IMG/VR virus record: IMGVR_UViG_3300036790_000317
Coordinates: 33,921 to 97,920 of that record
Source: a virus
DNA: 64,000 nt
Strand: one strand, 5' to 3'
Within the stretch, counting starts at the first letter, position 1. Every line of letters begins with the position of its first letter. Below the pieces are notes generated by a model. That model searched no databases. It was not told the DNA's origin and saw only the letters and a list, made by a program, of their open reading frames with translations. The translations under genes were made by a program, and so were the position numbers. Positions 38,359 through 54,196 of this stretch are shown piece by piece.

Positions 38359-39411
38359 TTATACATGCCTGGACATGACCGTGCTTAGCATGGTTTCCGT
38401 GGCTGCCTGCAGGCGCGCCGGCAGCCAGCACCCCGCACGTAGGGCATCTGCCTGGGCATCGGCCAGATCATAGAGCTGCCCGGTTGAGAAGCTTTCGATC
38501 TCGGCGACCGAGTACATGTACGGAGCGCCGAGCTGGGCATACTCACGCGAGTCCGAGAACAGCACAGACCGTGTCATCGCCGCATGCACGACCCGTTCCC
38601 GCCACCATCCGGCACCGAACAGCTTCCGGTATGGCTTGCTGAGCACGCCCCAGGAGTTTGCGTACGCCTCGACAACCTCACTGACTGGGACAAGTGTTTC
38701 CTTGCGGGTGTCTAGGCCGCCACCAAAGGAGAGAACAGGCCATGCAGCATGCTTCTGCCGGATGTCCTGCACGAAGTCCCGGTAGTCATGGATGCCGGCC
38801 ACGACCCACTGCCGCTGCCGGTCTCGCGGGTGCACCAGTCCGAATTCATGCCGGGGCATGTAGCTGACCGGATCCAGGAACCAGTACTCCTCGGCCGTCA
38901 CGATCCGCTTGTAGATTTCGCCGTCACCGAACCCGAACTTCGGCAAGATGACGGGCGGCAATCCCGTTTCGGTGAATCGAGACAGTACTCGAACCATCGC
39001 GTTCATGCCTTCCTCACTTGATGCCCAGGCATAATCCGGCCGGCGAGCATACACGTTCGGCCTGGTCAGGCGGCGGATGTCTCGCAGCGCAGACTTCGAG
39101 TTACCAGTAATCTGGTGCATCTCCCAGTCATCGATCATGCAGATGACCGGCTTCCGGTCCGTCAGCCAGTACCGGCTCAGCAAGCTGAACACGGGGAAAA
39201 TGTACTTGGCTGATACCGAAAACGGCGAGATAATCCCGGCGATAATGAGGTCGTACTCTTCAAGATCTTCGCCCGCTGTTACGTGCCTGTTATCGACATC
39301 ATGCCCGAGGTCTTTCAGCAACGGCACGAGACATTCACTGAGGATAACATACCCGGGACGTGGTGGGCTGCCACTTTGACCCAGCGTAAATCCGGTGCAC
39401 AAAATTTTCAT
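38359..39411 (-). CDS. GT-B fold glycosyltransferase, putative DNA-base glycosyltransferase
   Basis: MKILCTG..., L..LGHDV, GEDL..YD, IDDW, GWWR.R; context among nucleotide-modifying genes. Confidence 0.65.
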   Translation of the reverse strand: MKILCTGFTLGQSGSPPRPGYVILSECLVPLLKDLGHDVDNRHVTAGEDLEEYDLIIAGIISPFSVSAKYIFPVFSLLSRYWLTDRKPVICMIDDWEMHQITGNSKSALRDIRRLTRPNVYARRPDYAWASSEEGMNAMVRVLSRFTETGLPPVILPKFGFGDGEIYKRIVTAEEYWFLDPVSYMPRHEFGLVHPRDRQRQWVVAGIHDYRDFVQDIRQKHAAWPVLSFGGGLDTRKETLVPVSEVVEAYANSWGVLSKPYRKLFGAGWWRERVVHAAMTRSVLFSDSREYAQLGAPYMYSVAEIESFSTGQLYDLADAQADALRAGCWLPARLQAATETMLSTVMSRHV

Positions 39412-39423
39412 GGTTGTACGATA

Positions 39424-39684
39424 TCATCTGTGAGGGCTGAAGTCAGGCGTTCCGTCTTCGAGCGTAGGCATCGACCCAGGCAGGATGCGGAATGCTGGTG
39501 TGAGAACCTGATTGTGCGCGGCACAGACATCCTGCGCAAGGTGCATGGAATCCATGATTCCGATCAGCCAGTCCTGGTCACCGGGTTCCGGCCCAAGCTG
39601 AGCGTAGATGGCACGGTCATCTTCCCTACGTCCCGCTCGCCAGTACATCCGCCTGGCGCTCTCCTGCTGCCCGGTCGCGGTCAT
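39424..39684 (-). CDS. Hypothetical protein
   Basis: AGGAG RBS; WR.GR...RAIYAQ motif. Confidence 0.5.
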   Translation of the reverse strand: MTATGQQESARRMYWRAGRREDDRAIYAQLGPEPGDQDWLIGIMDSMHLAQDVCAAHNQVLTPAFRILPGSMPTLEDGTPDFSPHR

Positions 39685-40174
39685 ACTCAGTTCTCCTTCG
39701 TTCCTCACACCCCGGTGAGCAGAACCGCTCTCCGGTTTTCCAGGTGCGCACGGCACCTAGCAGGCCAGGCTCGTCAAGAGCCCGGCGGCAGTCCGGCCCG
39801 TCACACTTATCCGTGCCGTCATATCCTTCTTCCTGCCGCTGATAATTTCTGGCGTTCTTTCCTTCAAAAGCAGACATCAGCTCATCCGGGGTGATCCGGC
39901 CAGCAAGGCACAAGTTCAGCAGAAAGTGGGTAACGTCTACGATCTCGCCGAGGTACCGCTCTCGGTCTTTGAAATCTGGCGAGGCCGTAATCCACGGCTT
40001 CCAGTGTGTTTCGTTCAGGGCTTCATGCAGTTCATCTTCAAGGGCAAGGACGTTCCACCGGATGTACTCGATAAGAGCCTTACTATCCATCCGGTCAAAG
40101 TCATAACCCATCTGCTGCTGAAGTGACCCCTGCATCTCAAAGAGACGCACCAGCTGGTCGTATCCTGCCGTCAT
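39626..40174 (-). CDS. All-alpha dUTPase/dCTPase (MazG-like)
   Basis: ELHE...WKPW, EIVD..HF, KN..N..RQ..GY. Confidence 0.85.
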   Translation of the reverse strand: MTAGYDQLVRLFEMQGSLQQQMGYDFDRMDSKALIEYIRWNVLALEDELHEALNETHWKPWITASPDFKDRERYLGEIVDVTHFLLNLCLAGRITPDELMSAFEGKNARNYQRQEEGYDGTDKCDGPDCRRALDEPGLLGAVRTWKTGERFCSPGCEERRRTEYDRDRAAGERQADVLASGT

Positions 40175-41388
40175 GACAGCACCTCCGCGATTGTCTTGGC
40201 CGTCAACCGGGGATCGTGCTCAGCCCGGACAACCTCCCGGTTGTGCTGTGCCGTGCGCAGCCTGAGACCGTCATCCCAGGATAGTGCGATGGCCACCTGC
40301 TCACCTGCCTTCCGAGTCCAGGCTTCCGCGGCCGGGTCACGCGGGATGGTCGTCAATGACGGCATGGTGGGGATAGCCGGGGCAAACAGCCCCTGAAAGT
40401 TTTTCCGCCAGTGCAGGTGGGTAGCAACCTGCGTGGCGCCGGCATCGATGCCTTCAAGTTGGGTGTAGCTGCTGGCTCCGTGGCTGTTTTCGTCGGCCAT
40501 GACCGAGCACAGCACCTGCATGGCCGAGATGGCGGCCACGCCTCCGGGCCAGCCGGGGTACGGGCCGTCGTACCGCACCCAGCCTCTGCCGTCTGACAGC
40601 CACCAGTTATGCGGGCGGAACACGTCCTCGCCATGGCGGTATCCCTGCTCGTAGCCCATCTTCTGGAGCTGTTCGTACACCTCGACAGACAAGCTGGCCC
40701 GGTTTGAGATAGCACAGGCCCCGCGGAGCTGTACGACGGTTGCAGCCGGCAATGTTCTGAGGGCTGCGGCCATGGCGAGGATGTGAAACCCGTCGATATG
40801 AACGAACCGGCCAGCGCAGCCGGCTACCCCGCGACCCGGCAGCAGGTCATCCGGGGCATGCAGGGTGTACGGGTGCGGCACATAGTGCCACGGGTACTGC
40901 CGGAGCGACGGCGCCTCACGCAGCACGATCGTGTCGTTGACGTGCGTGATGCCCGTCCCGGCAAACGAGGGCAACGCCAGGACTGCCTCGGCAAACGGCG
41001 CGTGCTTCGGACTGTAGTTGTACGCCTGGAGTGCTGTCGTGAATCTCACGCCCGCGAGGTCCAGTACCCGGCCGTAGTAGGGCAGTCCCCAGTTTTCCCT
41101 GACGGCCTGCCGGTCTTGCAGGCCGATGAGAGGCTCGGTCAGCACCACGCCGTCATACTTGCCGAGAATATCTTTGCAATCCTTGTACTTGCCGACAACA
41201 TCCAGCGGCCGGTCGAACCAGCCCGTGCCCGGGGTCATCTGCCCCCATGCTTTGCGCTGCCGGCCGGACTTCGTAAAGCTGACGGTGTCACACTCATGCC
41301 CGAGGGCACGCAGTCCCTGCTGGGTAAAACGACTCCAGGTCATCGGGCCGCCACACACTGGCTCCGGGTCGTACAGGGCGATTTTCAT
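40171..41388 (-). CDS. GT-B fold glycosyltransferase
   Basis: MKIALY...GG, L.ALGHE, GRF...G, YTQLEGIDAG. Confidence 0.7.
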   Translation of the reverse strand: MKIALYDPEPVCGGPMTWSRFTQQGLRALGHECDTVSFTKSGRQRKAWGQMTPGTGWFDRPLDVVGKYKDCKDILGKYDGVVLTEPLIGLQDRQAVRENWGLPYYGRVLDLAGVRFTTALQAYNYSPKHAPFAEAVLALPSFAGTGITHVNDTIVLREAPSLRQYPWHYVPHPYTLHAPDDLLPGRGVAGCAGRFVHIDGFHILAMAAALRTLPAATVVQLRGACAISNRASLSVEVYEQLQKMGYEQGYRHGEDVFRPHNWWLSDGRGWVRYDGPYPGWPGGVAAISAMQVLCSVMADENSHGASSYTQLEGIDAGATQVATHLHWRKNFQGLFAPAIPTMPSLTTIPRDPAAEAWTRKAGEQVAIALSWDDGLRLRTAQHNREVVRAEHDPRLTAKTIAEVLS

Positions 41389-41620
41389 GACATCGTTCCA
41401 ATGGCTGGCAAGCCTCTATCGGCTGCGTGACTTGTCATTCCTGGCTTGCTTCTTCCACTGCCGGAGTCTCATTGCCGTGATGATATCATCCGAGATGGCC
41501 CCGGCAAGGCCACTGGAGAACCCGGCAGTGGTAGCGAGGACGAGCCACTGCCAGAACCCGCCTGTGATGGTGATGGTCATAGGTCAATGCCGACCTGGCT
41601 GTCAGGTGGTGAAGTGGCTG

Positions 41621-42319
41621 CTAAAACGGCATACCCGGAGGTGGCTTCGGCATCTTCGGCTCTTCGGGTGGCTCTGGCGGGGCTTCTGGCTCCTGAGGCT
41701 CGTCGGCAGGAGAGACGGCTGCTGCCGGAGGCGGCAGTGAGGGCGCAGGCACCGGAGGTGCTGGCGCTGGTGCCGGTGGTGCCGGTGGTACCGGGGGTGC
41801 AGCCGCAGGAGCAGCTGGAGGCGGAAGCGGAGGCGCGGTCTGTGGCATTGGTGGCATCTGCCGGGCAGGAGCAGAGGTAGATGGTACCGGCAGCCCGCTT
41901 ACCACAGAGCCACCAAGTGGCATGGTAGCGAGAATGCTATTTCGCTCCTGGTCATTCCATGTACGGACGCCGAGCCGAACCCGAACCTTGACCCCGTGCA
42001 GGTCCTTGGCCACCTTCTCCAGTGGCGGGTTCTGCGCAAAGTAATCATGCCCGAGGCCGAGGGCCTGCATCTTCCGGAAGAAGATCACCATGGCATTCGG
42101 GTTCGCGGGGCTGATGACATGATCTTCGAAGATGTTCCGGTTCTGGTGCGGGCCGTTCAGGACCCGGTACCGGACCGTGATCTTGCTCTTGCTCGTGCCC
42201 GTCTTGCCTGCCGTGGCCTGCGTCACTTCGACGTCATACTCGCCTTGGGGCAACGCGGAAAATCCTGTGGAACCTTCAATTTGCTTGAGCAGATCGGAGA
42301 AGAGAAATTCCTCGGCCAT
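41621..42319 (-). CDS. DUF669-type ssDNA-binding protein, Pro-rich tail
   Basis: LPQGEYDVEV...GPHQNR.IF; C-terminal PF; adjacent to Sak4-like ATPase. Confidence 0.75.
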   Translation of the reverse strand: MAEEFLFSDLLKQIEGSTGFSALPQGEYDVEVTQATAGKTGTSKSKITVRYRVLNGPHQNRNIFEDHVISPANPNAMVIFFRKMQALGLGHDYFAQNPPLEKVAKDLHGVKVRVRLGVRTWNDQERNSILATMPLGGSVVSGLPVPSTSAPARQMPPMPQTAPPLPPPAAPAAAPPVPPAPPAPAPAPPVPAPSLPPPAAAVSPADEPQEPEAPPEPPEEPKMPKPPPGMPF

Positions 42320-42321
42320 GA

Positions 42322-43074
42322 TCAGCTCCTTCCATCAGTCGTTGCCGTTGCCGCTAGCGTACCGGATCGGGCAGGCTGCTGCCAGCCCGTTACCTGAGTT
42401 AGCATCTTGCCGATATCCGGGTCATCTACATAGGTGCCGAGCCTGCCACCGACTCGCTCGCCGGCAATATATTCAGGTGAAGGCGCGATGAGAAGACGGC
42501 GGAACTCGGTGCCGTCTTCTCTGCGGTAGGAGCCGAGAAATCCGCATACATCTACGTAATATGGCATGAAGCTTGCCATCTTCCCCTGCATGAGAGGGCG
42601 CTTCGGGAATGCCTGCTCATCCATCATCGCGATCATGACGACGGTCTGCAGTGGTCGTGAAGGATGCGTGATCAGGTCTCGGTAGCCTCGGACGAGGGCA
42701 GATACCGTCCGGAGCAGCGTGCCCCAGTCCTGTACCTGCATGGGATTCATCCCGGCGATGTCATCCACGGCACGCTGCTGCGTCTCAGAGATGCTGTCGA
42801 TGACGACGGAGTTGAATGGGTGTGCCCCGGAGTACAGCCAGTCATAACTTTGCCGGACGCTCTGGTAGCCGTGGACGGGTACAAGGCACGTATCCCATGA
42901 TTCGTTGTGCTCCGGGGGCTTTTCACGAGCCGGATCCCACGTGATCTTCTTGCTGGGAGTAAAGCGTGACCCGCCTTCAGCATCAAGGACAAGCCGCGGA
43001 GGAGGTGACGTGTCACCTAGCCAGCTCTTACCGGCCTTGGGCCCTCCGTAGATGATGAATGAAATACCTTCCAC
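42322..43074 (-). CDS. Sak4-like AAA recombinase/ATPase
   Basis: IYGGPKAGKS, LDAEGG, VVIDS; GGAGG RBS + GTG. Confidence 0.82.
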   Translation of the reverse strand: MEGISFIIYGGPKAGKSWLGDTSPPPRLVLDAEGGSRFTPSKKITWDPAREKPPEHNESWDTCLVPVHGYQSVRQSYDWLYSGAHPFNSVVIDSISETQQRAVDDIAGMNPMQVQDWGTLLRTVSALVRGYRDLITHPSRPLQTVVMIAMMDEQAFPKRPLMQGKMASFMPYYVDVCGFLGSYRREDGTEFRRLLIAPSPEYIAGERVGGRLGTYVDDPDIGKMLTQVTGWQQPARSGTLAATATTDGRS

Positions 43075-43141
43075 GCATGTGCCTCCCGTTTCCATCTTTA
43101 CCTGGCAACAGAAGTAGTTTACCACATGGTGGAGTGTGGTA

Positions 43142-43636
43142 TCAGCCTGCTCTGACTTTTTCTGACGCATCTGGCAGAAGCGGCGGAGGCGGTGGAGGCG
43201 GCGGAAGTGCTAGCGGCGGTGGCTCTCCGTACTGGCACAGGTAAGCGCTTTTACGGTCTGCCGGGTCAACAGGCTCCGTAATCAGGTACTCATTGTCACC
43301 TTGGCCATGCAACGGAGCATAGACACGCTCTCCGTCGATCATGAATGCCTCAAGAGTCTCATGCTGCTCGACGAGCATGATCTGGTCAAGCAGCCATCGC
43401 TGCCAGCTGCGTCGGCTGTATTCTACCGCCGGCACCGGCATATCTCGCCGGAAGGTAAGCGGCTGGCCTAGATGGTAGATGTCCTCACAGGTAACGTAGA
43501 TCATCAGTGTCAGTCCCCTGCCACCTTGGCGGCGGTCCGTGACACCTAGTTCAAACTGCCACCCTGGCTTGTACCCGAGCCGGGCAACGAGACCTTCCAG
43601 TTCTCGCGGGTACGGAGCCTGCTGTGTCAGCAACAT
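43142..43636 (-). CDS. Hypothetical protein
   Basis: TGATG overlap with exonuclease. Confidence 0.55.
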   Translation of the reverse strand: MLLTQQAPYPRELEGLVARLGYKPGWQFELGVTDRRQGGRGLTLMIYVTCEDIYHLGQPLTFRRDMPVPAVEYSRRSWQRWLLDQIMLVEQHETLEAFMIDGERVYAPLHGQGDNEYLITEPVDPADRKSAYLCQYGEPPPLALPPPPPPPPLLPDASEKVRAG

Positions 43637-44553
43637 CAGGCTTGTATCCTTTCTGCATAATAATGATATGGATCTTGCTGCTGGAACTGGTCTCTTATCA
43701 TATCTTCCCAGCGGTCTCCCGCGTCCATGAGAGGACAGACATGATAGAACGGGCATTCCCATGAGCAGCTAGCCATCGGGGTAGCGTACGTGGCCTCACG
43801 GTGATCTGTCCCGCCCTTCAGGCGAGATCTGACATGAAGCATCTCACTGATAATTTCTCGCGTCCGCATCCACATGCTGTTCAAGTCGTCACGCTTGTAC
43901 CGTACCTCTTCAAGAGCGTAAAACGGCGGGGTAGCGCGGGCCGTGCGCTTGCTGCGCAGCATATAGACGACCTGCCCGCCGTCAACCCGGATGTCACCGT
44001 CTGCGTTAAGCCTGGCAATCATGGTGTAGAACCGCATCTGCGGGCTGAGGATGAGGTCATTAGCGGCGCTAAGAGATCCGGTCGTCTTCCAGTCACGGAA
44101 CAGCACTGCGCCATCCGTCTTGCGCCGGATCATCTGGTCGAGCCGGCCACGGATCGTTACGCCGTCCATGCCGGGCATGGGCACCTGGACATCCTGCTCG
44201 GCAGAAATGATTTCAATGCCTTCATTCAGCCCGGTTTCTGCCGCCCATTCCAGGTACCCTTCAATCATCGTCCTGGCCAGGGCTTGCTCATTGAAGATTT
44301 CCGCCGCGCAGTCGGGCCGGAATATTGTCTCGGCACCGTAAATATCTGCCAGCCAGCCTAGCGGCCCGTCTTCCCTGGGTCGTTTCTGGTCTAGTTCCAG
44401 CGCCTGGTGGATCCGGTGCCCGAGCAGCATGTTACCGGTGGGCGGGCTGTCTTCCTTGCGCAATGCCAGCCATAGCACATACTGCAAGTACCACTTCCGC
44501 CGGCATCGTGTAAAAGTGCTGATCTCGCTGTTCGAGACCGGATCCGAGATCAT
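43636..44553 (-). CDS. PD-(D/E)XK exonuclease (RecB/Cas4-like)
   Basis: S.S....F..C.RKW, G..IH, GRLD, DWKT, Q...Y, C..ECPF..VC. Confidence 0.88.
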   Translation of the reverse strand: MISDPVSNSEISTFTRCRRKWYLQYVLWLALRKEDSPPTGNMLLGHRIHQALELDQKRPREDGPLGWLADIYGAETIFRPDCAAEIFNEQALARTMIEGYLEWAAETGLNEGIEIISAEQDVQVPMPGMDGVTIRGRLDQMIRRKTDGAVLFRDWKTTGSLSAANDLILSPQMRFYTMIARLNADGDIRVDGGQVVYMLRSKRTARATPPFYALEEVRYKRDDLNSMWMRTREIISEMLHVRSRLKGGTDHREATYATPMASCSWECPFYHVCPLMDAGDRWEDMIRDQFQQQDPYHYYAERIQA

Positions 44554-45200
44554 AGTGACATGAACAGCGTGAGAAACATCATCACCGCGAACGCGATAAT
44601 GATGGCTGTAATGATAGCTGGCGGTACCGGGTTAATCGTAATCCGGCGCGCGGCTTTCTGCGGGAGAGGCTGGGCCTTGGCCTTGGCAGTGCCGAGGTCA
44701 CGAGTCAGCTCATTCAGCTCAGGCTGCGTCCGGGCACCGAGCGCCACTTGCATGCGGTCATCAAACTCATTCTGCCGCAGCTTTCCGTCACTGAATGCTT
44801 CGGACAACCACTCGATGGTACCGTTGCGCTCGGCATCACCGATGAGCGGGTGACCTGGTTCCGGCGGTGGTGCCACCTTGCGAGACGCAGGCTGGGCAGC
44901 CTGGCTTTTCGCCTGCTCTTTCAGCCGCCTGATTTCTTCGAGAACCTTCACGTGCTCCTTAGTCAGGTCACGTGGCAAGGTATCTCTGGCTTGCAGCTTG
45001 TCATACGCATCGGAAACTTCTGCCAGGTTGTGCCCCGTCAAGGTTACCTTGCCACCGGCATGCATCCAGCAGGTGACAATGTACTGGCCGTTCTTGAAAC
45101 TAGCTGCCATGTTACTCCGGTAGCTGGGTATTATGGGTGTCCTGTGCATTTCCGTCTGGGATCTTTGCATGAATGCCTCGAACTCTTTGTCCCACGTCAT
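44550..45200 (-). CDS. DUF1707 (SHOCT-like) membrane protein
   Basis: IGDAER...L..AF.DG.L...EFDDR...A..ART..EL..LT.DL; C-terminal TM. Confidence 0.75.
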   Translation of the reverse strand: MTWDKEFEAFMQRSQTEMHRTPIIPSYRSNMAASFKNGQYIVTCWMHAGGKVTLTGHNLAEVSDAYDKLQARDTLPRDLTKEHVKVLEEIRRLKEQAKSQAAQPASRKVAPPPEPGHPLIGDAERNGTIEWLSEAFSDGKLRQNEFDDRMQVALGARTQPELNELTRDLGTAKAKAQPLPQKAARRITINPVPPAIITAIIIAFAVMMFLTLFMSL

Positions 45201-45429
45201 TCCTTATTCCTCCTAGCTGATCTTCGACATGCACAAGACGTGCCTCGACCGAGAGCAGCCGCTGCTGGATGATGCCCAGATCCGGTTCCTGCTTTGGCCA
45301 GTTCATTGAATGACCGGCGGGGCAGAAGCATGCATAATGATCTTCTACCCGGGCATTGAACAGGCCCCGGGTAATCCCGAACAGTACCTCGCACTCGGGG
45401 CACCGCACCTTAATCAGGTCTTCTGTCAT
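45112..45429 (-). CDS. Small Zn-binding hypothetical protein
   Basis: CPEC...CPAGH. Confidence 0.5.
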   Translation of the reverse strand: MTEDLIKVRCPECEVLFGITRGLFNARVEDHYACFCPAGHSMNWPKQEPDLGIIQQRLLSVEARLVHVEDQLGGIRNDVGQRVRGIHAKIPDGNAQDTHNTQLPE

Positions 45430-45619
45430 GCGTCCTTCCCTTCTGGCTGGCGCGGGCCTAGGAAAACTTTCAGCGTCCGGCCATTATCTTGAAGGCTCAG
45501 GTCTACGCTGCAATCCCAGGTAACGAGGATCATGCCGAAACTTTCCCGGTTTGCGGGAATGAGATTGAGGGGAGCGCCGTGGTTAATAACTTCTACACGA
45601 GTTATCTTGCTCGTGTCTG

Positions 45620-45850
45620 TCAATGTGTGCCACCTGTAGCTTGTGCTGCCCGGGCAGCGGCACGCCGTGCCAGCCGCCGTTCCTTGGCTTCCTCCCACGG
45701 CGTGGGCTTGCCCTCGTGCCGCCGCTGGATGTTCATGCGCGCCTGGCTGTTCTGGGTTTCGCGGTTCCTGAGGTGCTTTGCCGTCGCCTGCTGGAACACG
45801 AAACTTTGGTATGACTTGCGCTTTTCCGTGCGTGGTTTCTTTGCTACCAT
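45620..45850 (-). CDS. Small basic hypothetical protein
   Basis: AAGGA RBS; K/R-rich. Confidence 0.5.
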   Translation of the reverse strand: MVAKKPRTEKRKSYQSFVFQQATAKHLRNRETQNSQARMNIQRRHEGKPTPWEEAKERRLARRAAARAAQATGGTH

Positions 45851-45875: not shown

Positions 45876-47666
45876 TTATTGCATGCCGAGCAGCCTCGCG
45901 AGCATCGTCCGGTCTCGGATGATCTCCTCGATCTGGACTTCTTTTTCTTCGAGCACCTGCAATTTACGCCACTCCACGGTATCCGGGGCGATCTGGTCGA
46001 TGATCATGACCGGGCTCTCCTGGCCTCTGCGGTGCAGCCGGTCTTCACACTGCTCGTTCAGGTGCGGAGACCAGTGCCGCTGCATGAACAGCATGGTACT
46101 GGCACGGGTAAGCGTAATGCCCTCCCCGCCGGCCTGGATCGTCATGAGCATGCACCGCAGCCGCCCGTCCTGGAACGCCTGGACGGCTTCCTGCCGTTGT
46201 TCCGTGGTCCGGCCTCCCGTGATGAGGCCGTACGGGATTTTAGCCCGGTCAAGCCGGGCTGCGGCCAGGTCAATGAGCTGACTGCTGACGGCCGCGGCCA
46301 CGAGAGGCTCGTCACCCATCTCGTCGAGCAGTTCCTTCAGGTCATCGACCTTGGAGCTGGGCATGGCGAGCCGGACCTTGCCGTCCTCGCTGATCTGCGC
46401 CGATGCTGATGCGAACTGGAGCAGCCGGGTAAGCTGCGAGATAGCGTTTGGCGCGGCGAGGATCTCGCCGGCCTCGAAGGCGTTCGTAACCTCGGTGGCG
46501 AAGCTGCGCTCCATCTGGTGGTACAGCTTCGCCTGCGACGGGGTCATCTCGCAGTACCGGTACTGCACCGGCAGCTTCGGCGGAAGCTGTGGCAGCGCAG
46601 CTTTTTTCGGCACCCGGCGGAACAGCGGGTCCGTGACCGCGCGGAACTCCGGCGCCGTGTCCGGGCGGAGGCCGAGGATTTCGGTCCCGCCGTAGAAGCC
46701 AAGCTCGACCCGGGCCCACCGGTCCAGGTACCTGGTCTTCGCCGGGAAAGCCTCAGGCTCGATGGCATGCAGCAACGACCACAGGTCACCGACGTTTGCC
46801 ACGACCGGGGTCCCGGTCAGGCCGTACCGGAACTCAGCGTCCCGCATGATGGCCCAGGCTGCCCGGGTCCGCTTCGAATGAGCATCTGCACAGTGATGAA
46901 GCTCGTCACCAATAACCGTCCGGAAGCCCATCTCGTTCAGTTCCTTCGGTTCCTTCTCCGCATCGCTGAGGGCTATGTTGCCGTAGCCTGCGAGGCGGGA
47001 GTGAATGCGCAGCGCCTCCCAGTTGATGATCCAGAGATCAGCATCTGTTCCGAATGCCTTGCGCCGCTTCCCGGCTGACCCGCCGATGATCTGTGGCTTC
47101 AGGTCCGGGGCGAACTTCCGCAGTTCTCCAGCCCAGGTTTCCTTCACGGTGTTGGGGCAGATGATGAGCGCCGGGAAGGGCGCCTCATCTCTCTCGAGGA
47201 AAACCTGAAGGGTGCGGATAGCGCTCGCGGTCTTGCCGAGCCCCGGCGGGTTAGCGAGGATGCACCTGCGGTTGATGACCATGAAGGCGACGTCGATGCA
47301 CTGGTACGGGGACAGCTTCGTGCTGAGGCCTGCCTCGATCTTGCTGATCGTCTCGAAGATCTCGGTGATAACGCCGTACTCTTCAAGGTCTTCGGTGGCG
47401 AGCCTGTCTCGCAGGAGCGTCGCGGGGCTGACGCGGAGGGCATGCTCGCCCACGGCCCACGCTTCCAGGAGCGGGCCGACGTCCAGGTTCCAGCCGAACA
47501 GCCCTCGGAGGGTAATGCACGCAGCCCATGACAGCGGAACATGCCAATGCTGTTCCTGGTTGTCCCAGTTCGCGCCTGGAAGCTGCCGGATCAAGTATCT
47601 GTCTGCGTACAGCGTCTTAATCTCGATCTTGTGAGGGTTCTTCTCAGACAGTTCCGCATACGGCAC
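45876..47666 (-). CDS. SNF2-family helicase
   Basis: PGLGKT, DELH, LTGTP, GGEGITLT, Q.EDR.HR.GQ. Confidence 0.92.
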   Translation of the reverse strand: MPYAELSEKNPHKIEIKTLYADRYLIRQLPGANWDNQEQHWHVPLSWAACITLRGLFGWNLDVGPLLEAWAVGEHALRVSPATLLRDRLATEDLEEYGVITEIFETISKIEAGLSTKLSPYQCIDVAFMVINRRCILANPPGLGKTASAIRTLQVFLERDEAPFPALIICPNTVKETWAGELRKFAPDLKPQIIGGSAGKRRKAFGTDADLWIINWEALRIHSRLAGYGNIALSDAEKEPKELNEMGFRTVIGDELHHCADAHSKRTRAAWAIMRDAEFRYGLTGTPVVANVGDLWSLLHAIEPEAFPAKTRYLDRWARVELGFYGGTEILGLRPDTAPEFRAVTDPLFRRVPKKAALPQLPPKLPVQYRYCEMTPSQAKLYHQMERSFATEVTNAFEAGEILAAPNAISQLTRLLQFASASAQISEDGKVRLAMPSSKVDDLKELLDEMGDEPLVAAAVSSQLIDLAAARLDRAKIPYGLITGGRTTEQRQEAVQAFQDGRLRCMLMTIQAGGEGITLTRASTMLFMQRHWSPHLNEQCEDRLHRRGQESPVMIIDQIAPDTVEWRKLQVLEEKEVQIEEIIRDRTMLARLLGMQ

Positions 47667-47669
47667 TCG

Positions 47670-47852
47670 TTACCAGCCTCGGTCGAAGGTCAGCTCATCA
47701 GGTTCTTCATGCTGCCATGCAGGATGCAGGCACGACAGGCAGATGGTATCTGATTTCGGGTCTGAAATGTCAGCGAGCATGTCATCCATGTCACCGTATA
47801 TCATGTGGCCCCGGCGGCAGCACGGGCATGCCGGGTACTCCCTGGCTTTCAT
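47670..47852 (-). CDS. Small Cys-rich hypothetical protein
   Basis: Fits gap between helicase and resolvase. Confidence 0.45.
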   Translation of the reverse strand: MKAREYPACPCCRRGHMIYGDMDDMLADISDPKSDTICLSCLHPAWQHEEPDELTFDRGW

Positions 47853-47854
47853 GA

Positions 47855-48331
47855 TTACCAGCCTAGTGACGTAGAGAGAATGGTCTTGTGCTCCTCTTCA
47901 AGGGCGCCTGACCGGATCATCCAGGCAAGCAGGTGCCGGGCTGCATCATTCGCGTGCCCGAGGCCTGGCCGGTACCAGCCGAATTTTTTCAGTGTCTCAG
48001 AAGAAACGGTCATCCGCGCCTGCCGTGAGGCAGCCGGCAGGATCTGGGCGTCGTGCCTGATCGCCAGCCACCTGATAACGCCGATAATCTCGATGGTCTC
48101 GCTGCTTCCCCTGAGCCGGTACGTGGCCGGCGTGATATTAAACTGCTCCCAGCCTACGAGCGCTTCTCGGGACTGACGGCAATGATCTTGCATGATATCA
48201 CCGGCCAGCTGCGGCCATGCCTCGCCGGACTCGAAGCCCTTGCCATCACGAAGCCGTGCCCAGCCGGTCATCTTGCCCGGGTCTAGCCAGAGCACGCATG
48301 TTTTCCCGCGTGCCACCAGTGGTGGTGTCAT
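47855..48331 (-). CDS. RuvC-like Holliday junction resolvase
   Basis: LDPG..TGWA, WEQF, HANDAARH. Confidence 0.8.
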   Translation of the reverse strand: MTPPLVARGKTCVLWLDPGKMTGWARLRDGKGFESGEAWPQLAGDIMQDHCRQSREALVGWEQFNITPATYRLRGSSETIEIIGVIRWLAIRHDAQILPAASRQARMTVSSETLKKFGWYRPGLGHANDAARHLLAWMIRSGALEEEHKTILSTSLGW

Positions 48332-48443
48332 ATGCCCCTAAGCGAGCAGGCCGATCACGCCGAGCGTCATTACCGCATGCACGAAAATCGTGATGCCGGC
48401 TGCGAGCAGCACGACGCCTCCGAAAATCTTCATCTTAAACCTC

Positions 48444-48875
48444 CTAACAGTTATTCGTTCCCGCTCCGAATGAGCCTGGAGGACAGGCGGTGCCGTCATC
48501 GGCGCTGCCGTTGCTGCTCCCGCCGCTGTTGCTGGAATTGCTGCCAGAACTAGATGAGCTACCACTGCTGCTGCCGGAGCAGGTACCGGTGTTTCCGTTG
48601 CTGTCCACCCAGCCGGCGATGGTCTGATGGCAGCCCTGCCCTGGTGGGTTCGGGCCACCGTCGTTATCACTGCCATTGCCACTGCTGCTGCTGCCGTTGA
48701 CGTGGCTGCACCCGTAACTCAGTGCCGTCGCGACGGGAGCATTAACGCAGGAGAACACCCGTCCCGGTTCGGTTTTCGTGATCGGCATCTCGTTGCTACC
48801 CGGATTACAAGCAGCAAGCACCAGGGTGCAGGCTCCGGTCAGCAAGGTGAGCGCAATGGTTTTTGATTTTTTCAT
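48444..48875 (-). CDS. Lipoprotein with Ser/Gly low-complexity region
   Basis: MKKSK + hydrophobic + LAAC lipobox. Confidence 0.65.
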   Translation of the reverse strand: MKKSKTIALTLLTGACTLVLAACNPGSNEMPITKTEPGRVFSCVNAPVATALSYGCSHVNGSSSSGNGSDNDGGPNPPGQGCHQTIAGWVDSNGNTGTCSGSSSGSSSSSGSNSSNSGGSSNGSADDGTACPPGSFGAGTNNC

Positions 48876-48878
48876 TCC

Positions 48879-50661
48879 TTATCCTTTTCCTTGCCAGCGT
48901 TCTGTCATTATACTAGGCGAAGCAGTAATGGGAATTGCATAATTTTCATGGTCTTCCATAATACGGCAGATCGTGATGGCTGCTTCCTCGGCATCTTCTG
49001 CCGGGACCTCGAACAACAGCTCATCATGCACCGGCAGCAACATCTTGTCACCGAATCCAGCAGCATCCAGGTTCAGCACCGCCTGCTTGAGGATTTCTGC
49101 GGCATGCCCCTGGATCAGGGCGTTCACCATCTGCGTCTGCTCCCGGCCTCGGTCAGCGACAAGCTTACGGCCGAGCGGGGTAAGGATGCTCGGTGGATCA
49201 TTCTCACGGGCTTCCATGAGAATCCGATCCGTCAGCATGCTCAGGCCCGGGTACCTGGCGTTGAAAGCGTCATACACTGGGCGCATCTGCTGCAACGTCA
49301 CGCCGGCTGTCAGCGCCATCTTCGCAACACCAGCCCCGTACAGCCTGGCGTATCCCATGTTCTTGACCATTTGCCGGCGGCGGTCGGACTTCAGCACCGG
49401 CTCGCGGAACAGCTCCGACGCAATCTCGGCAAAGAAGTCTTTGCCCTGAGTGTCGGCAGCCTTGAAAGCCTGCGCGAGGCCGGGATCTTGCGCGAAGTGT
49501 GCAGCGAGTCGCATCTCGATCTGCGAGTAGTCACATGAGATGAAGACATTGCCTGGCCTGGGGATGAACGCGCCTCGGACGATGAGATCATCTCTGGGCA
49601 GCGTCTGCAAGGCCGGGTCCGTGATCGACATTCGCCCCGTGCGAGCCCCAAGTCCCCATATACTTGCATGGACAAGATCATCTCGATCCCGGAGCTTGAG
49701 CAGGTTTTCCAGGTAGGTGCCGGCCATTTTCTCCGAATGCCGCACCGTTAGCACGGTGTTACACAGTTCTCGGACGGCTGGCGTGACAGGATTATCTCGG
49801 TAAAAGCCGAGGGCTTCCTTGTCGATCTGCGGCAGGCCGTGCTCGGTGTGCCATTCGATGACTTGCCCCTGCGCCTCAAGTGCCGCGGCAATCTCTCGGC
49901 CGGACATCGGGCTGCGGACAAGGTGCTCGGTCAGCAGCCATTCCCGTACGTCATGCGCGTACTGCCGGATTGTGGCTAGCTTTTCTTCCGTATACGTGAC
50001 GTCGATCTTCATGCCCTTGAGCATCATCATCGCGAGGATGCGACTGACGCCCTGCTCCAGGTCGTAGACCTTGCTGTAGGAGGCCGTGACCTGCGGGGCC
50101 AGCTTCGCCCAGATATGACAGGTCAGGACCGGGTCCAGTGCCCCGTAGCACCAGTATGGGGCGAATTCCAGTGGCACCGTCGCCCACGTCCACGACTGCT
50201 TCCGCATCCCGTCGTGCAGTACCTGCTCGCCGGCCGAAGCCCGCGGGTCTACGAGCCGGTTAGCCAAAGCCTTCAGTCCTCGAGGCCGGAGCGGGTTGGT
50301 CAGGTGCGCCATCGTCAAGGTGTCGTCAATTTTGGACCATGGCGGGTCCCATTTGCCGTGTACCATAAGAAACCGGCAGTCAAATGAAGAGTTGTTCTAA
50401 ATGAGCCACCAGCTTACCTTTATAGGCAGATAGTAGCTCAATGGCACCACCTCCCCACTGCTGAAAAGGCACGGCATAACCTTGGTGCATGTCACCTAGC
50501 TGGATAAGCCGTAGCGTGTCTTTACTTGGAGCAAGCCCACTCGATTCTGTATCGAAGCCCATGGGAGTCTCGCGGCGCTCTCCTGCCCATGCCTTCATCT
50601 CCCAGAGATCATCGATACTCTGCACGAGCTTGAGGCGGACGTTCTCCAGCGGGGATTCCAC
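48879..50661 (-). CDS. polA: Family A DNA polymerase, frame broken at 50394-50400
   Basis: ExoI FDTES in 50380-50661; ExoIII YGALD, motifs A DYSQIE, B R...K...Y...YG, C VHDEL in 48879-50396. Confidence 0.9.
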
Positions 50662-50681
50662 GTTAAATTTTACAGCCGTGG

Positions 50682-50975
50682 CTACAGCACGATGCCGTAT
50701 ACCTGGTCAAAACTGCACCAGCCATTGACGTGCCCATGATTGTTGCTGATCTGCACCTGCCGTTTCCGGATGTCAACCGCGGTGACGAGGTGCAGCCGGT
50801 ACGCGCCGTGCACCTTGCACAGCACGATCTCGCCGGGGTGAGGCTCGCCGGCCATCCGGACGACGGTCACCTGCTGCCCTGATTTAATAAGCGGGGTCAT
50901 CGAGTTCCCGTGCGGGCGGAACGTGACAGCTCCGTGCTCCAAGACCCGGTGGGCTGCCTCAGCCAGGTTTGCCAT
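50682..50975 (-). CDS. S24/S26 peptidase-fold small protein
   Basis: GNSMTPLI..G; GGAGG-type RBS. Confidence 0.65.
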   Translation of the reverse strand: MANLAEAAHRVLEHGAVTFRPHGNSMTPLIKSGQQVTVVRMAGEPHPGEIVLCKVHGAYRLHLVTAVDIRKRQVQISNNHGHVNGWCSFDQVYGIVL

Positions 50976-50988
50976 GATGTGCCTCCTC

Positions 50989-51453
50989 TCACAGGATATC
51001 TACCTTCAGCTTGCATTTCCTGAGGAATTCTTCCTGGGCGGCAGTGCCCCGCCGCAGGTCCGCGGCCGTCTTGCGCCATACGGCACGGGCTACCCCGCTG
51101 TTGGCGATGATCTTGGCGCATTCCTCGCAGGGAACGCTGGAAATGTAAAGCGTGCCACCTTCGGCGCGCGACCGGTCTGCGAACGAGATCGCGTTCTGCT
51201 CAGCATGCGCGGTCGGGCAGGCAAGCCCGTAAATCTTGGAGACCTCGCCGGCTTTTACCGTGCGGCGCGGGCACATCGTCATGCAATCCCAGTCATCCGG
51301 GAACCGGGCAGGAGGCCCGGTATAACCGGTGCTGACAACCCGCTGCTTGCGGTCAGCAATCACGGCGCCGACCCCGCCGGGGCACATGCTCCGCCGGGAC
51401 ATCAGGATGGCAAGCGCCATCCACGTTTCATCCCAGGATGGCCTACCCGTCAT
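50989..51453 (-). CDS. dCMP deaminase
   Basis: RPSWD, HAEQNA, PCEECAK. Confidence 0.93.
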   Translation of the reverse strand: MTGRPSWDETWMALAILMSRRSMCPGGVGAVIADRKQRVVSTGYTGPPARFPDDWDCMTMCPRRTVKAGEVSKIYGLACPTAHAEQNAISFADRSRAEGGTLYISSVPCEECAKIIANSGVARAVWRKTAADLRRGTAAQEEFLRKCKLKVDIL

Positions 51454-51642
51454 CTTGTACTTTTCTTCCTTGCAGGTCGATGTACGCGGCGATGACACAC
51501 GCCGCGTCCCATAGTTTCATGCCACGCCGGAGGCCGTAGTAGATCGCGCCGATCTGAATCCAGGCCATGTCAATACCCGGAACCGGGTCCGGTGGCATGT
51601 CACCACCGGACCCGGCCGGGTCATCACCTTCTGTCATCCTGC

Positions 51643-52242
51643 TTACTGAGCACGGTCAAATGCCCGCAGGCCGAACTGCCGCCTGCGGCCACCCGGCACG
51701 AGTGGTGGTGTCCGGCCACCGACCCGCTCCGGGAGATCGGTGTTATTCGTCTGGCGCAGGTCACTCTTCTTCAGCGGGTCTTCCTTGCCCTTGCCGTCGC
51801 CCGCGGGAGGATCTGACGCGAGTGCCGCTCGCGCGGTCGCGGCTGCCTTCGCCCAGGCTTCCTTCTGCGCCGGGCTTCCTTCTCTCACGTCTCCGGCCTT
51901 CTTGCGAGACTTGAGGTTAGCCCGGGTTACGTGCCCGCCGGTTAGCCTGACACTGAACGGGTCGGGCATCTCGCCTCGGTCGAACTGGATAATGGCAATC
52001 TGCGCCACCCTCGGTGTGAGGTAGGTGTACCGCAGGTTCTTGGACCCGTCCGTAAACCGGATCGTCTGCACATCCACGGACACGAACTTGGCCTCCGGAA
52101 AAGCCTTCTTGACCGACTCCGCGATCATGCAGTGACTAGAGTCACGCTCGATGCTCTCGCGTGCGATTTCTTCTGTCACCTCTAGCTGGAGCTGCGGAGC
52201 GCGAGGGCGCTTCGGCTGCTGGGCAGCAATACTCCTTGCCAT
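51643..52242 (-). CDS. Hypothetical protein
   Basis: GAGG RBS; SSHCMIAES motif. Confidence 0.6.
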   Translation of the reverse strand: MARSIAAQQPKRPRAPQLQLEVTEEIARESIERDSSHCMIAESVKKAFPEAKFVSVDVQTIRFTDGSKNLRYTYLTPRVAQIAIIQFDRGEMPDPFSVRLTGGHVTRANLKSRKKAGDVREGSPAQKEAWAKAAATARAALASDPPAGDGKGKEDPLKKSDLRQTNNTDLPERVGGRTPPLVPGGRRRQFGLRAFDRAQ

Positions 52243-52244
52243 GG

Positions 52245-53201
52245 TTACCTCTTTCTCTTATCCTTCTCTTCCTCACTGGTGCCGTCACGGCACCGGCAAG
52301 TTTCTCCTTCCGGATGGATGTACCGGCAGAGGACGCACGTGAAATGCTCGACCGCTGCCTGAGGAAGCAGCCTGCTGTACCAGCCGGAACCCGGGATGAT
52401 GGTATTGCCCGGTAGCCGGCCGAGGACGAGCTGCTCTGCTGCGTCCTGGGCATCCATTACTCGTTCTGAGGCACGTGACGTGTCTTGATAGTAGTTGCAT
52501 GTCAAAGCAGGAGGCTGCTCTGCAGCCACGCTGTCATCCCAGCGCAGTTCCGCGGCTTTCTCGGTATCTTTTTCATACAGGTGCAGGCTCCCGGCGAAGA
52601 AGGTAAACGACCCCGGCTGGCAGCCCAGTGCCCAGGCAAGAGTCATCTGAAGGCGAGACTGCATCCAGAAATCATATGGCAGCCCGATATACGCATCACT
52701 GCTGCGCATGATCACGGTAGCGTCAAGCCGGTCACTCCGGATCCGGTACTGTACCGCGACCGTGCACGGCACATCTCGCTGCCCCGGCTGGCTGTCTGCG
52801 AGCATCCCGTTGTGGATGACGAGGACCGCCTGGCGACTGTCCCGGTCGTCTTCAAGCTTTTCCGCGATCAGTGGCAGCTGGTCGTAAACTCGCGGCCCGT
52901 AAGCTCCGCGGAGCCGGTTACCGTTGGCGAACTGGGCAAATCTGCCGTGGCTGGCATGATCAAGCTGGCTCAGCCAGCTCACTCCCGCGAGGAGCTGGCA
53001 GTATTCGGCTGCTCCAATGCGCTTGTTTATGGTACGCCCTGATGCAACGGGGACAGCTTGTGATGCTTCGGTAATGCACACTGTTGCGTCGCATAGCTCC
53101 CTGCATGACAGCTTGCGAGGTGCAACCGTGGTGCCGTGCACGAGCAGCTCTCGCATGAGCGCTGGGTATGCCTCGGACCCGGTCGTGAAGGTTAGTTTCA
53201 T
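52245..53201 (-). CDS. Thymidylate-synthase-fold enzyme, predicted dCMP hydroxymethylase/methylase
   Basis: AYGPR, SRQA, VPC, MRSSD..IGLPYD (Asp where ThyA has Asn), SLHLY. Confidence 0.82.
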   Translation of the reverse strand: MKLTFTTGSEAYPALMRELLVHGTTVAPRKLSCRELCDATVCITEASQAVPVASGRTINKRIGAAEYCQLLAGVSWLSQLDHASHGRFAQFANGNRLRGAYGPRVYDQLPLIAEKLEDDRDSRQAVLVIHNGMLADSQPGQRDVPCTVAVQYRIRSDRLDATVIMRSSDAYIGLPYDFWMQSRLQMTLAWALGCQPGSFTFFAGSLHLYEKDTEKAAELRWDDSVAAEQPPALTCNYYQDTSRASERVMDAQDAAEQLVLGRLPGNTIIPGSGWYSRLLPQAAVEHFTCVLCRYIHPEGETCRCRDGTSEEEKDKRKR

Positions 53202-54196
53202 GCCTGGCTCTCCGCAGCAGTCATGATCTGGGCAGCATATCCTGCTATCTCATTGTGACGGAAGCGTCGCTGCCACTGCGGGTGGGCTACCTGCACATAC
53301 TCGATGCCGGCTTCATCCAGCCGCCGGGCAGCACTGACGCCGAGCGCTATCCACTGCCTCGGCCCGAGTAGATCATCCGCGATCTTCAGGTCCATGCCTT
53401 CTTCGCCGGTATTGAGGATGCCGAAGCTTCGCAGCACCTGACGACAGTGGATGGCGAGCGCGTCCATCAGGTACAGTGCCGAGCCCGGGCCGGCGGGGGT
53501 AAAAGCATGCGTAAACGCCGGATCCGGGTCACCTGCCCCGGACCTGACGTCGCCGGCGAGGATAACCCCGGGGCGCTGCGACCCGATATAGCCAGGCACC
53601 TTGGCCTGCACCTCGCCAGACCACTCCGCGCGGTACCTCGCCCGGGCAAGGAGAGCAAGGATGTGAGACACGTCCGGCTGGCGGCGCAGCACGTCGTACC
53701 AGTACAGCGGCGCGAGGCTGGAATAGCTGTCCCAGATCATGGTGATCTCACCGGTGTCGAACAGATCACCGCGCTTGTGCTCAGGCAGCAGCAGCCAGTC
53801 ACCGTTCTTCTGGAGGCGCTTGACGACGATGCCGAGCGACGGGATCATCGCGATCTTGATGGCGCCGTGTGCCATGGCAAGCATCTCGCAGTGCAGCAGC
53901 CCGCCGGCGCTGAGGCGGCTCGCCCCGCGCTTAAGCGGGCCGTAGATCAGCTCGCCCATCGCCCAGCGGTCCTGGATGACGAGCAGATCCTGCCGCAGGA
54001 TCTCGTTTCCTGGCCGGCCGAGTGGCTCCCGCAGGAGCGTGGCTTCATACTCTTCGAACGGGTTCCGGTCCGGTGGCCTGGGTGGCCTGGCTGACCGGCG
54101 GAAGACCGCGATCTTCTGCCGGCTGGCTTCTTCTTCGATGGCACCAGCGAGGGTAGTTTTTCCTGCGCCATCCGGGCCTTCAATAATAATCAGCAA
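53198..54196 (-). CDS. dNMP kinase fused to UDG-superfamily-like domain
   Basis: EGPDGAGKTT, DR...E..YG; C-terminal ILAGD, IALG..A, HPQ. Confidence 0.75.
   Translation of the reverse strand: MLIIIEGPDGAGKTTLAGAIEEEASRQKIAVFRRSARPPRPPDRNPFEEYEATLLREPLGRPGNEILRQDLLVIQDRWAMGELIYGPLKRGASRLSAGGLLHCEMLAMAHGAIKIAMIPSLGIVVKRLQKNGDWLLLPEHKRGDLFDTGEITMIWDSYSSLAPLYWYDVLRRQPDVSHILALLARARYRAEWSGEVQAKVPGYIGSQRPGVILAGDVRSGAGDPDPAFTHAFTPAGPGSALYLMDALAIHCRQVLRSFGILNTGEEGMDLKIADDLLGPRQWIALGVSAARRLDEAGIEYVQVAHPQWQRRFRHNEIAGYAAQIMTAAESQA

Follow-up and report, generated by a model that had tools for sequence, protein, structure and literature searches.

In phage T4, glucosylated 5-hydroxymethylcytosine (5hmC) is made by a set comprising gp42, the dNMP kinase gp1, the dCTPase/dUTPase gp56, the dCMP deaminase Cd and an alpha- and a beta-glucosyltransferase (AGT and BGT). 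In phages RB69, DLP3 and RL38J1, whose DNA carries glycosylated 5-hydroxycytosine (5hoC), a thymidylate synthase (TS) homologue has GT-B DNA glycosyltransferases and a thymidylate-kinase-like (TMPK-like) kinase as neighbours (Lee et al., NAR 2026, PMC13326640). MilA, the CMP 5-hydroxymethylase of mildiomycin (PDB 5jnh, 5b6d), acts on a ribonucleotide in an antibiotic pathway. In the phage TET pathway, 5-methylcytosine is converted to 5hmC and then to glycosyl-5hmC, and a C5-methyltransferase-like gene adjoins the glycosyltransferases (Burke et al., PNAS 2021, PMC8256090). Among TS homologues (E. coli numbering throughout), N177D marks dCMP specificity and D169N 5-hydroxylation, and an acidic residue in place of Leu143 makes the intermediate accessible to water, hence a product other than methyl (PMC13326640). 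Positions 147 and 177 also distinguish cytosine-modified from unmodified metagenomic contigs (PMC8670742).

The window, that is, the whole stretch of DNA analysed, comprises 64,000 nt and corresponds to positions 33,921–97,920 of IMG/VR record IMGVR_UViG_3300036790_000317; whole-record searches covered the 97.9-kb record, which is estimated to be 88% complete. The virus is a tRNA-rich soil phage, probably of actinobacteria, and not a T4-like phage (Straboviridae). No paper on the gene set, the phage or its relatives was found in the literature. According to the ORF listing, the gene set at 38359–54196 lies entirely on the minus strand, and all elements named in a first-pass annotation were recovered there at the positions detailed below.

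The set covers the same roles as that of T4 and is most likely a T4-style kit by which cytosine is replaced by 5hmC in the phage DNA and sugars are then added, with glycosyltransferases that are, at the sequence level, unrelated to those of T4. The modified-cytosine reading of the first-pass annotation was supported by Asp177 and further diagnostic residues; the nature of the base and of the sugar (mono- or disaccharide), the degree of replacement and the identity of the host stand as predictions. The locus also differs from T4 in that the kinase is thymidylate-kinase-like and carries a uracil-DNA glycosylase (UDG)-like domain, unlike gp1, the polymerase belongs to family A and not B, no phage TS for dTMP was found, and a C5-methyltransferase-like gene belongs to the conserved set.

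We infer all steps of the pathway from sequence comparisons and structural models, and consider it fairly probable that 5hmdCTP would be formed before replication and the DNA glycosylated afterwards. The TS homologue would convert dCMP and methylene-tetrahydrofolate to 5-hydroxymethyl-dCMP, the coupled kinase would phosphorylate this product, and host NDP kinase would yield 5hmdCTP for incorporation by the phage PolA. The all-alpha pyrophosphatase would deplete competing dCTP and/or dUTP, and the deaminase would shunt dCMP to dUMP, so that the host thymidylate synthase could sustain the dTTP supply. Following replication, the 5-hydroxymethyl groups of the DNA would be glycosylated by one GT-B enzyme or by both, acting at separate sites or sequentially, with a host-derived NDP-sugar as donor. 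The likely benefit would be a shield against restriction and other nucleases. Cytosine replacement may be partial, leaving residual cytosine as a substrate for the methyltransferase-like enzyme.

The presence of two different GT-B enzymes was confirmed on AlphaFold2 models, for which Foldseek and VIA-align agreed. Neither P0003 (350 aa, 38359–39411) nor P0004 (405 aa, 40171–41388) matched any Pfam or NCBIfam family; among the PHROGs, the sole match of P0003 was a family of unknown function, and P0004 had none. P0003 (pLDDT 76) resembles the T4 beta-glucosyltransferase (BGT) in fold only. Its best Foldseek match was T4 BGT 1j39 (7.3e-07), with VIA-align Z-scores tied between T4 BGT (16.7; rmsd 4.1, 298 aligned residues), SenB (16.3) and PimA (16.1), and its matches in BFVD were uncharacterised viral proteins (TM 0.73–0.85), Gordonia phage Phendrix among them. 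P0004 (pLDDT 97) has a GT4-like and T4 AGT-like fold: Foldseek retrieved HepE (3.5e-11) and T4 AGT (4.6e-10), and the Z-scores of HepE (26.1), BshA (26.0) and T4 AGT (25.7) were tied, the alignment with T4 AGT being the longest (344 residues, rmsd 3.6). In the P0004 family (109 representatives), PF13439 (Glyco_transf_4) was detected in 5 of 60 members, PF13579 in 3 and PF13692 in 2, and none of them in P0004 itself.

The comparison with the T4 enzymes, which the first-pass annotation had proposed, held for the fold of both proteins and failed for sequence kinship between P0003 and BGT, with an hhalign probability of 4.7% for the P0003 family against T4 BGT. No match at E ≤ 1 was obtained in the whole record with PF09198 (T4 BGT, GT63) or PF11440 (T4 AGT, GT72), for which the T4 positive controls gave 1e-99 and 1e-261, respectively. 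The lack of sequence kinship with BGT counts against DNA glycosylation, as do the structural matches to T4 enzymes, which are not set apart from those to non-DNA glycosyltransferases, and the fact that no nucleotidyltransferase was found in the record.

The same gene order was observed in Micrococcus phage Kurnik, Gordonia phage GMA2, Actinomycetia phage DSL-LC01 and 11 of 12 IMG/VR loci, namely kinase, TS homologue, deaminase, PolA, helicase, nuclease, AAA_24 ATPase, DUF669, a glycosyltransferase slot, NTP pyrophosphatase and methyltransferase. The AAA_24 ATPase is labelled RecA-like in relatives. The slot contains one or both glycosyltransferase families and, in some relatives, an additional APH-like kinase, HAD phosphatase and nucleotidyltransferase; in DSL-LC01 it contains a UDP-galactopyranose mutase. 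Kinase, phosphatase and nucleotidyltransferase are the enzyme kinds of the NDP-arabinose cassette of RB69 and DLP3 (PMC13326640), and in these genes, as in the mutase, the relatives' slot resembles the RB69/DLP3/RL38J1 systems. P0003 has homologues in DSL-LC01, in GMA2 and in Aeromonas phages of the T4-like type. One of the latter, Aeromonas phage 25, combines a P0003 homologue with a gp42-type enzyme and gave no match to PF09198 or PF11440, that is, it lacks a T4-type glucosyltransferase. In the phage studied here, the structural genes include a clear sugar-tailoring and glycosyltransferase cluster with Streptomyces phage matches.

That cluster indicates that non-DNA glycosylation occurs in this phage lineage, and it lends some weight to an alternative in which 5hmC DNA is made and both GT-B enzymes act off DNA, for instance on virion proteins, host cell-wall polymers or small molecules, with 5hmC left bare or otherwise decorated. 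The Z-scores for PimA, BshA, SenB, HepE and TarM, which equal those for the T4 DNA glucosyltransferases, point the same way. On the other hand, P0003 and P0004 are both encoded within the DNA-metabolism operon, and the P0004 gene overlaps that of the NTP pyrophosphatase by 4 nt, so that the two are translationally coupled. Among the relatives, both families go together with the TS homologue, and that of P0003 follows the gp42-type enzyme in the unrelated T4-like lineage without T4-type glycosyltransferases. We consider a role off DNA unlikely.

Glycosylation of 5hmC in DNA, as favoured here, depends on the product of the TS homologue P0001 (318 aa, 52245–53201), a predicted dCMP hydroxymethylase with a Cys-rich C-terminal tail. 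Its TS fold and GLPYD motif, noted before, were verified by a match to Pfam Thymidylat_synt (PF00303, 1e-15) and in the translation. The top PDB sequence match was MilA CMP hydroxymethylase (4e-16), the best solved sequence relative; unlike MilA, P0001 belongs to the replication operon of a phage, alongside genes for a dNMP kinase and a DNA polymerase. As proposed earlier, the Asp of GLPYD replaces E. coli N177, aligning with D179 of T4 gp42 and with the Asp of MilA, and D143 and D169 agree with this assignment. P0001 is identical to T4 gp42 at E58, Y94, D143, C146 (the catalytic Cys), T147, D169 and D177, and differs from ThyA by L143D, N177D and the replacement of His147 by Thr, with D169 kept. 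The gp42 signature was retained in 6 of 6 aligned TS homologues (P0001 and five relatives), D143 being present in P0001 and in 5/5 relatives. D169N, the mark of 5-hydroxy-dCMP synthases, was absent from P0001 and from 5/5 relatives, whereas RB69 gp48 has Asn in the same alignment. With Asp169 retained, P0001 does not carry the signature of a 5-hydroxy-dCMP synthase of the RB69 gp48/DLP3 gp80 type. The absence of D169N from all six proteins leads to the prediction of hydroxymethyl chemistry and not flavin-dependent hydroxylation, P0001 being predicted from its residues to form 5hmdCMP from dCMP and methylene-tetrahydrofolate. The putative folate-site tryptophans W80 and W82 were not conserved in the P0001 alignment, in a poorly aligned region, which counts against this product.

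The latter observation speaks for a further alternative, in which the TS homologue makes either 5-methyl-dCMP, the product known from Xanthomonas phage XP12, or 5-hydroxy-dCMP, that of RB69 and DLP3, with sugars ether-linked to 5hoC or absent. N177D by itself sets the substrate and not the product, the residue rules for the product are drawn from few characterised enzymes, and a TS homologue with a TMPK-like kinase and glycosyltransferases is the kind of neighbourhood found in 5hoC phages. However, every tested 5hodCMP synthase has Asn at position 169, where Asp is kept here, and position 143 is Asp as in T4 gp42 and MilA, not Leu as in the methyl-forming ThyA, and we regard another C5 product as less likely still. 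It is very improbable that P0001 is an ordinary thymidylate synthase with dUMP as substrate, in a nucleotide salvage module without base modification: relatives are labelled thymidylate synthase in GenBank and the deaminase would supply dUMP, but Asn177, His147 and Leu143 of ThyA are replaced by Asp, Thr and Asp, the highest score with any NCBIfam TS model was 59.8 bits, far below the cut-offs (108–576), and in Aeromonas phage 25 the gp42-type and true TS genes occur side by side, so that the two types are distinct. Neither a second TS-like gene nor ThyX was found in the 97.9-kb record.

The remaining nucleotide enzymes correspond to roles in the T4 set. The all-alpha NTP pyrophosphatase (182 aa, 39626–40174), of the dimeric dUTPase/dCTPase family, was confirmed by matches to Pfam dUTPase_2 (PF08761, 1.3e-13) and PHROG 18650 dUTPase (4e-27). 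In tblastn it was weakly similar (2e-6 to 1e-3) to T4-like phage genes that carry the label dCTPase or gene 56, which adds to the likeness with T4; its dCTPase and/or dUTPase activity is putative. The dNMP kinase P0002 (332 aa, 53198–54196), likewise recognised before, has a P-loop, a DRW motif and weak thymidylate-kinase matches in its N-terminal half. Its C-terminal 150 aa are UDG-superfamily-like, with an ESM Atlas feature score of 0.90 to viral clusters in which 30–36% of members have PF03167, and a structural TM of 0.73 to an archaeal UDG-superfamily cluster. The gene overlaps that of the TS homologue by 4 nt, the two being translationally coupled, and homologues occupy the same position in DSL-LC01, Kurnik and the loci L009 and L011.

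No TET/JBP dioxygenase had been recognised previously, and a PF12851 search of the six frames of the record was empty at E ≤ 1; unlike the phage TET pathway, the locus has a nucleotide-level TS homologue. As in that pathway, a divergent C5-cytosine methyltransferase-like gene is found next to the glycosyltransferases (593 aa, 36015–37796, minus strand, outside 38359–54196; PF00145, 1.8e-11). The catalytic PC is retained, within PPCSG, ENV reads ESV, and motifs VI, VIII and IX/X are present (ESV, RRLRYF and REAARVMGFPDDW, respectively). In a weak alignment with M.HaeIII (E 0.001), the AdoMet-binding motifs deviate from the canonical form: the first Gly of motif I (FxGxG) aligns with Phe, and the acidic residue of motif III, an Asp, with Gln. 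One subclade of the relatives lacks any GxG in motif I. A homologue comes after the pyrophosphatase in every related locus extending that far. If replacement were complete, the enzyme would be without substrate because cytosine would be fully replaced, and the conserved gene is a misfit with a simple full-replacement model. It is a doubtful but conceivable suggestion that the enzyme is no plain methylase, the catalytic Cys being kept and the cofactor pocket rewired, and that covalent activation at C6 would install or exchange a C5 group; its substrates may be 5hmC, glycosyl-5hmC or residual cytosine of the phage DNA. Such C5 chemistry, together with the kinase-UDG fusion, would amount to a hitherto undescribed chemistry of cytosine modification, and both proteins offer testable puzzles on how phages handle partly modified DNA.

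If the proposed chemistry is true, T4-style sugar-decorated cytosine replacement would extend to an entire clade of phages from soil and freshwater, including three named phages of actinobacteria, and would there be built from two glycosyltransferase families named by no curated model. Hundreds of proteins now listed as hypothetical would gain names, among them candidate 5hmC glycosyltransferases in Aeromonas phages of the T4-like type. The variability of the slot points to a wide range of sugars, and these could serve as 5hmC-labelling tools. DNA modification also affects sequencing, restriction and engineering of such phages.

The interval contains further genes. Its longest ORF is an SNF2 helicase (596 aa, 45876–47666), separate from PolA. 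A 199-aa basic protein (51643–52242) lies between the TS homologue and the deaminase; it matched PHROG 19191, of unknown function (5e-05), and no Pfam or NCBIfam family, and it is missing from this position in DSL-LC01. The dCMP deaminase (50989–51498) was corroborated by PF00383 (3.6e-18) and adjoins the TS homologue in every relative whose locus reaches there. The phage's own PolA, also reported before, was identified at 48879–50366 (PF00476, 1.1e-59), with the N-terminal ~90 residues in another frame (50380–50661), so that a frameshift divides the gene. A contig of an independent soil run spans 50355–50631 without any indel, and PolA of DSL-LC01 and Kurnik align as two pieces in different frames, with the junction near 50400.

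Genes for replication and nucleotide metabolism make up a long minus-strand operon of the window (about 57 to 34 kb), and a pathway for sugar-bearing 5-hydroxymethylcytosine (5hmC), already proposed in the first-pass annotation, is the best explanation of its modification genes; this reading is supported with moderate confidence. The genes listed in that annotation were all found at the positions assigned to them.

The thymidylate synthase (TS) homologue P0001 (52245-53201, minus strand; PF00303, 1e-15) is encoded by a gene with a 4-nt overlap with the upstream gene of the P-loop kinase P0002 (332 aa; 53198-54196, minus strand). P0001 was aligned with E. coli ThyA, T4 gp42, RB69 gp48 and five relatives. 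Compared with ThyA, residues E58, Y94, R126, C146, R166, S167, H207 and Y209 are retained, and D143, T147, D169 and D177 are identical to those of T4 gp42 at the same positions, confirming the Asp of dCMP specificity previously recognised. According to the rules summarised by Lee et al. (PMC13326640), dCMP becomes a substrate with N177D, an acidic residue at position 143 accompanies non-methyl products, and D169N marks the flavin-dependent 5-hydroxy-dCMP synthases, 5hoC being made by all D169N enzymes tested; position 169 is N in RB69 gp48 versus D in P0001 and in all five relatives aligned. Independently, in the MetaGPA study, positions 147 and 177 were the best two for telling cytosine-modified from unmodified contigs (PMC8670742). 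The closest solved relative by sequence was the CMP hydroxymethylase MilA, and neither a second TS nor ThyX was found in the record. On the basis of this residue pattern, of MilA as the best solved relative and of the lack of another TS or ThyX, P0001 is predicted to be a dCMP hydroxymethylase, its product being assigned through residue rules for which the set of characterised enzymes is modest. Beyond the TS domain, P0001 ends in a Cys-rich tail (CxxC ... CxC; 52245-52340, minus strand), which is missing in the aligned homologues of Actinomycetia phage DSL-LC01, Gordonia phage GMA2 and Micrococcus phage Kurnik.

The C-terminal half of the kinase (53198-53770, minus strand) resembles the UDG superfamily, as judged from its last 150 residues in the ESM Atlas; a sequence search of the PDB with this domain returned nothing meaningful and Pfam gave no match. 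The fusion is kept in DSL-LC01, in which the kinase is of equal length. The UDG-superfamily assignment is a lead and not a proof. Upstream of the kinase-TS pair are a small ORF, a gene for an HTH protein (54202-54543) and, further upstream, a gene for a 446-aa protein (54916-56256, minus strand) whose only match is a weak one to a C2H2 zinc finger (0.0063).

Downstream of the TS homologue, a 199-aa basic protein, a dCMP deaminase (50989-51498, minus strand) and PolA are encoded. PolA is split, as the DSL-LC01 and Kurnik proteins match 50655-50401 in one frame and 50405-48894 in another; the frame changes at 50380-50405 (minus strand) and about 90 N-terminal residues lie in a separate frame. 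A contig of a second soil run spans 50355-50631 with the same sequence and no indel, and therefore the split is not a one-off assembly error. Another contig of that run, of lower depth, lacks the 182 bases between 50384 and 50567. The operon continues with an SNF2 helicase (45876-47666, minus strand) and, further down, a PD-(D/E)XK nuclease, an AAA_24 ATPase (RecA-like in the annotation of relatives) and a DUF669 protein, followed by the GT-B enzyme P0004 (40171-41388, minus strand). The gene of P0004 has a 4-nt overlap with that of an all-alpha pyrophosphatase of the dUTPase_2 family (39626-40174, minus strand), a member of the dimeric dUTPase/dCTPase family with weak similarity to T4-like phage genes bearing a dCTPase or gene 56 annotation. 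The other GT-B enzyme, P0003, lies at 38359-39411 (minus strand). TET/JBP dioxygenases were searched for in the record and not found, in agreement with the first-pass annotation. The possibility that the 194-aa ORF between P0003 and the C5-methyltransferase-like gene encodes a hidden dioxygenase was rejected, as no family match was obtained and its translation, inspected by eye, shows one hydrophobic, probably membrane-spanning stretch.

No match was obtained in Pfam or NCBIfam for P0003 or P0004; PHROGs gave nothing for P0004, and for P0003 a single match to a family of unknown function. Word-based searches recovered 4-7 close relatives of each glycosyltransferase. For P0004, an exhaustive search provided 109 representative relatives, and Glyco_transf_4 was matched by 5 of 60. 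Its AF2 model (pLDDT 97) is GT-B, with HepE (3.5e-11) and T4 AGT (4.6e-10) in Foldseek, and Z scores in VIA of 26.1 for HepE, 26.0 for BshA and 25.7 for T4 AGT, the last with the longest alignment (344 residues). The P0003 model, built on 7 sequences, is clearly GT-B yet weaker (pLDDT 76) because of the few close relatives; T4 BGT was first both in Foldseek (7.3e-07) and in VIA (Z 16.7, level with SenB and PimA), and the nearest BFVD folds were uncharacterised viral proteins (TM 0.73-0.85), among them one of Gordonia phage Phendrix. Thus, the presence of two different GT-B enzymes was confirmed by the models and by both structural searches. Kinship with T4 BGT or AGT at the sequence level, a check suggested in the first-pass annotation, was not borne out: PF09198 and PF11440, which both recover T4's own genes, had no match in the record, and a comparison of the P0003 family with T4 BGT in hhalign was negative (probability 4.7%). 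When IMG/VR was scanned with a P0003-family pattern, no relative was confirmed. The assignment of P0003 and P0004 as DNA glycosyltransferases rests on their context.

To describe this context, tblastn was run on Kurnik, DSL-LC01, GMA2 and 12 IMG/VR loci that a scan with the P0004 family had recovered; the scan alignment of this family was a 12-sequence subset, the 60-sequence version being too diverse. The order kinase, TS, deaminase, PolA, SNF2, nuclease, AAA_24, DUF669, glycosyltransferase slot, pyrophosphatase and methyltransferase was conserved in the three named phages and in 11 of the 12 loci, although the surveyed phages are mutually related and the synteny therefore counts as roughly one evolutionary observation. 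The variable part is the glycosyltransferase slot. It contains a P0004-type enzyme and nothing else in locus L009; a P0004-type enzyme, an APH-like kinase, a HAD phosphatase, a nucleotidyltransferase and a P0003-type enzyme in loci L011 and L013; UDP-galactopyranose mutase and two P0003-type enzymes in DSL-LC01; two P0003-type enzymes and one distant P0004-type enzyme in GMA2; and, in Kurnik, a P0004-type enzyme with two paralogues that carry a glycosyltransferase annotation, Glyco_transf_25 being weakly matched by one of them. The sugar kinase, phosphatase and nucleotidyltransferase of L011 and L013 are the same kinds of enzymes that make the donor for the DNA arabinosyltransferases of RB69 and DLP3 (PMC13326640).

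An observation of context independent of the actinophage-type relatives was provided by the T4-like Aeromonas phage 25 (NC_008208), which has a true td and a gp42-type enzyme (D143, D169, D177) and no match to the BGT and AGT family models. Three successive hypothetical proteins of about 350 aa are encoded at 3896-7167 of the retrieved locus (L021), the middle one being a P0003 homologue, and they are candidate unrecognised 5hmC glycosyltransferases.

With respect to the sugar donor, no nucleotidyltransferase (PF00483) was found in the record. Among the structural genes, on the plus strand, are genes for a C-methyltransferase of NDP-sugars (Methyltransf_13/14; 1484-2614), an NAD-dependent NDP-sugar epimerase/dehydratase (2518-3507) and a 630-aa glycosyltransferase (3823-5715), of which Pfam recognises only a GT1 region (residues 186-313). 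The N-terminal approximately 380 residues of the latter are similar to glycosyltransferases of cyanophages and a Pontimonas phage, and its C-terminal part to those of Streptomyces phages, where the relatives are encoded among consecutive genes annotated as glycosyltransferases and nucleotidyltransferases. Because of its location among structural genes, the 1484-5715 cluster probably glycosylates the virion, which is its more likely role; it could also supply a modified sugar donor to the DNA enzymes.

The C5-methyltransferase-like gene (593 aa; 36015-37796, minus strand) follows the pyrophosphatase in every relative reaching that far and travels with the modification module. The protein retains the catalytic Pro-Cys and motifs VI, VIII and IX/X, and shows an N-terminal extension of about 160 aa, PCS for PCQ, ESV for ENV and an irregular motif I, whose GxG is wholly absent in one subclade of the homologues. 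A weak alignment with M.HaeIII places Phe at the first Gly of motif I and Gln at the Asp of motif III. C5 methylases are not known to accept 5hmC as a substrate, and therefore either the replacement of cytosine is partial or this enzyme has another role.

The proposed scheme is the same in function as that of T4. The TS homologue has the diagnostic active-site residues of gp42, whereas P0003 and P0004 do not match the T4 glycosyltransferase families in sequence, and the kinase family differs from that of T4 gp1. Literature searches on actinophage 5hmC, Kurnik and Gordonia phage 5hmC found no report of such chemistry in any relative; for DSL-LC01, the only paper found is reportedly a metagenomic genome description.

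The virus record is linear, 97.9 kb long and with an estimated completeness of 88%, and the window corresponds to its bases 33921-97920. Structural genes occupy the plus strand, those for terminase and portal being within the upstream 34 kb, and an array of 36 tRNA genes on one strand (window 26646-34447, minus) separates the structural and replication blocks. No close phage relative was detected at the DNA level (megablast of a 5.3 kb query against 50,697 phage records); at the protein level, the relatives were phages of Micrococcus, Gordonia and Streptomyces and an uncultured "Actinomycetia" phage, and the host is likely an actinobacterium. The window sequence is present in soil metagenomes of two studies; two soil DNA runs contain it as contigs only, which carry no information on base modification, and no RNA run with this sequence is listed. 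In the upstream part of the record (L008), the 1237-aa portal protein (L008 3021-6734) contains a LAGLIDADG domain, suggestive of an intein, and L008 6673-8349 (both together, record 23021-28349) encodes a 558-aa protein in which NUDIX and Mu-F-like domains are combined.
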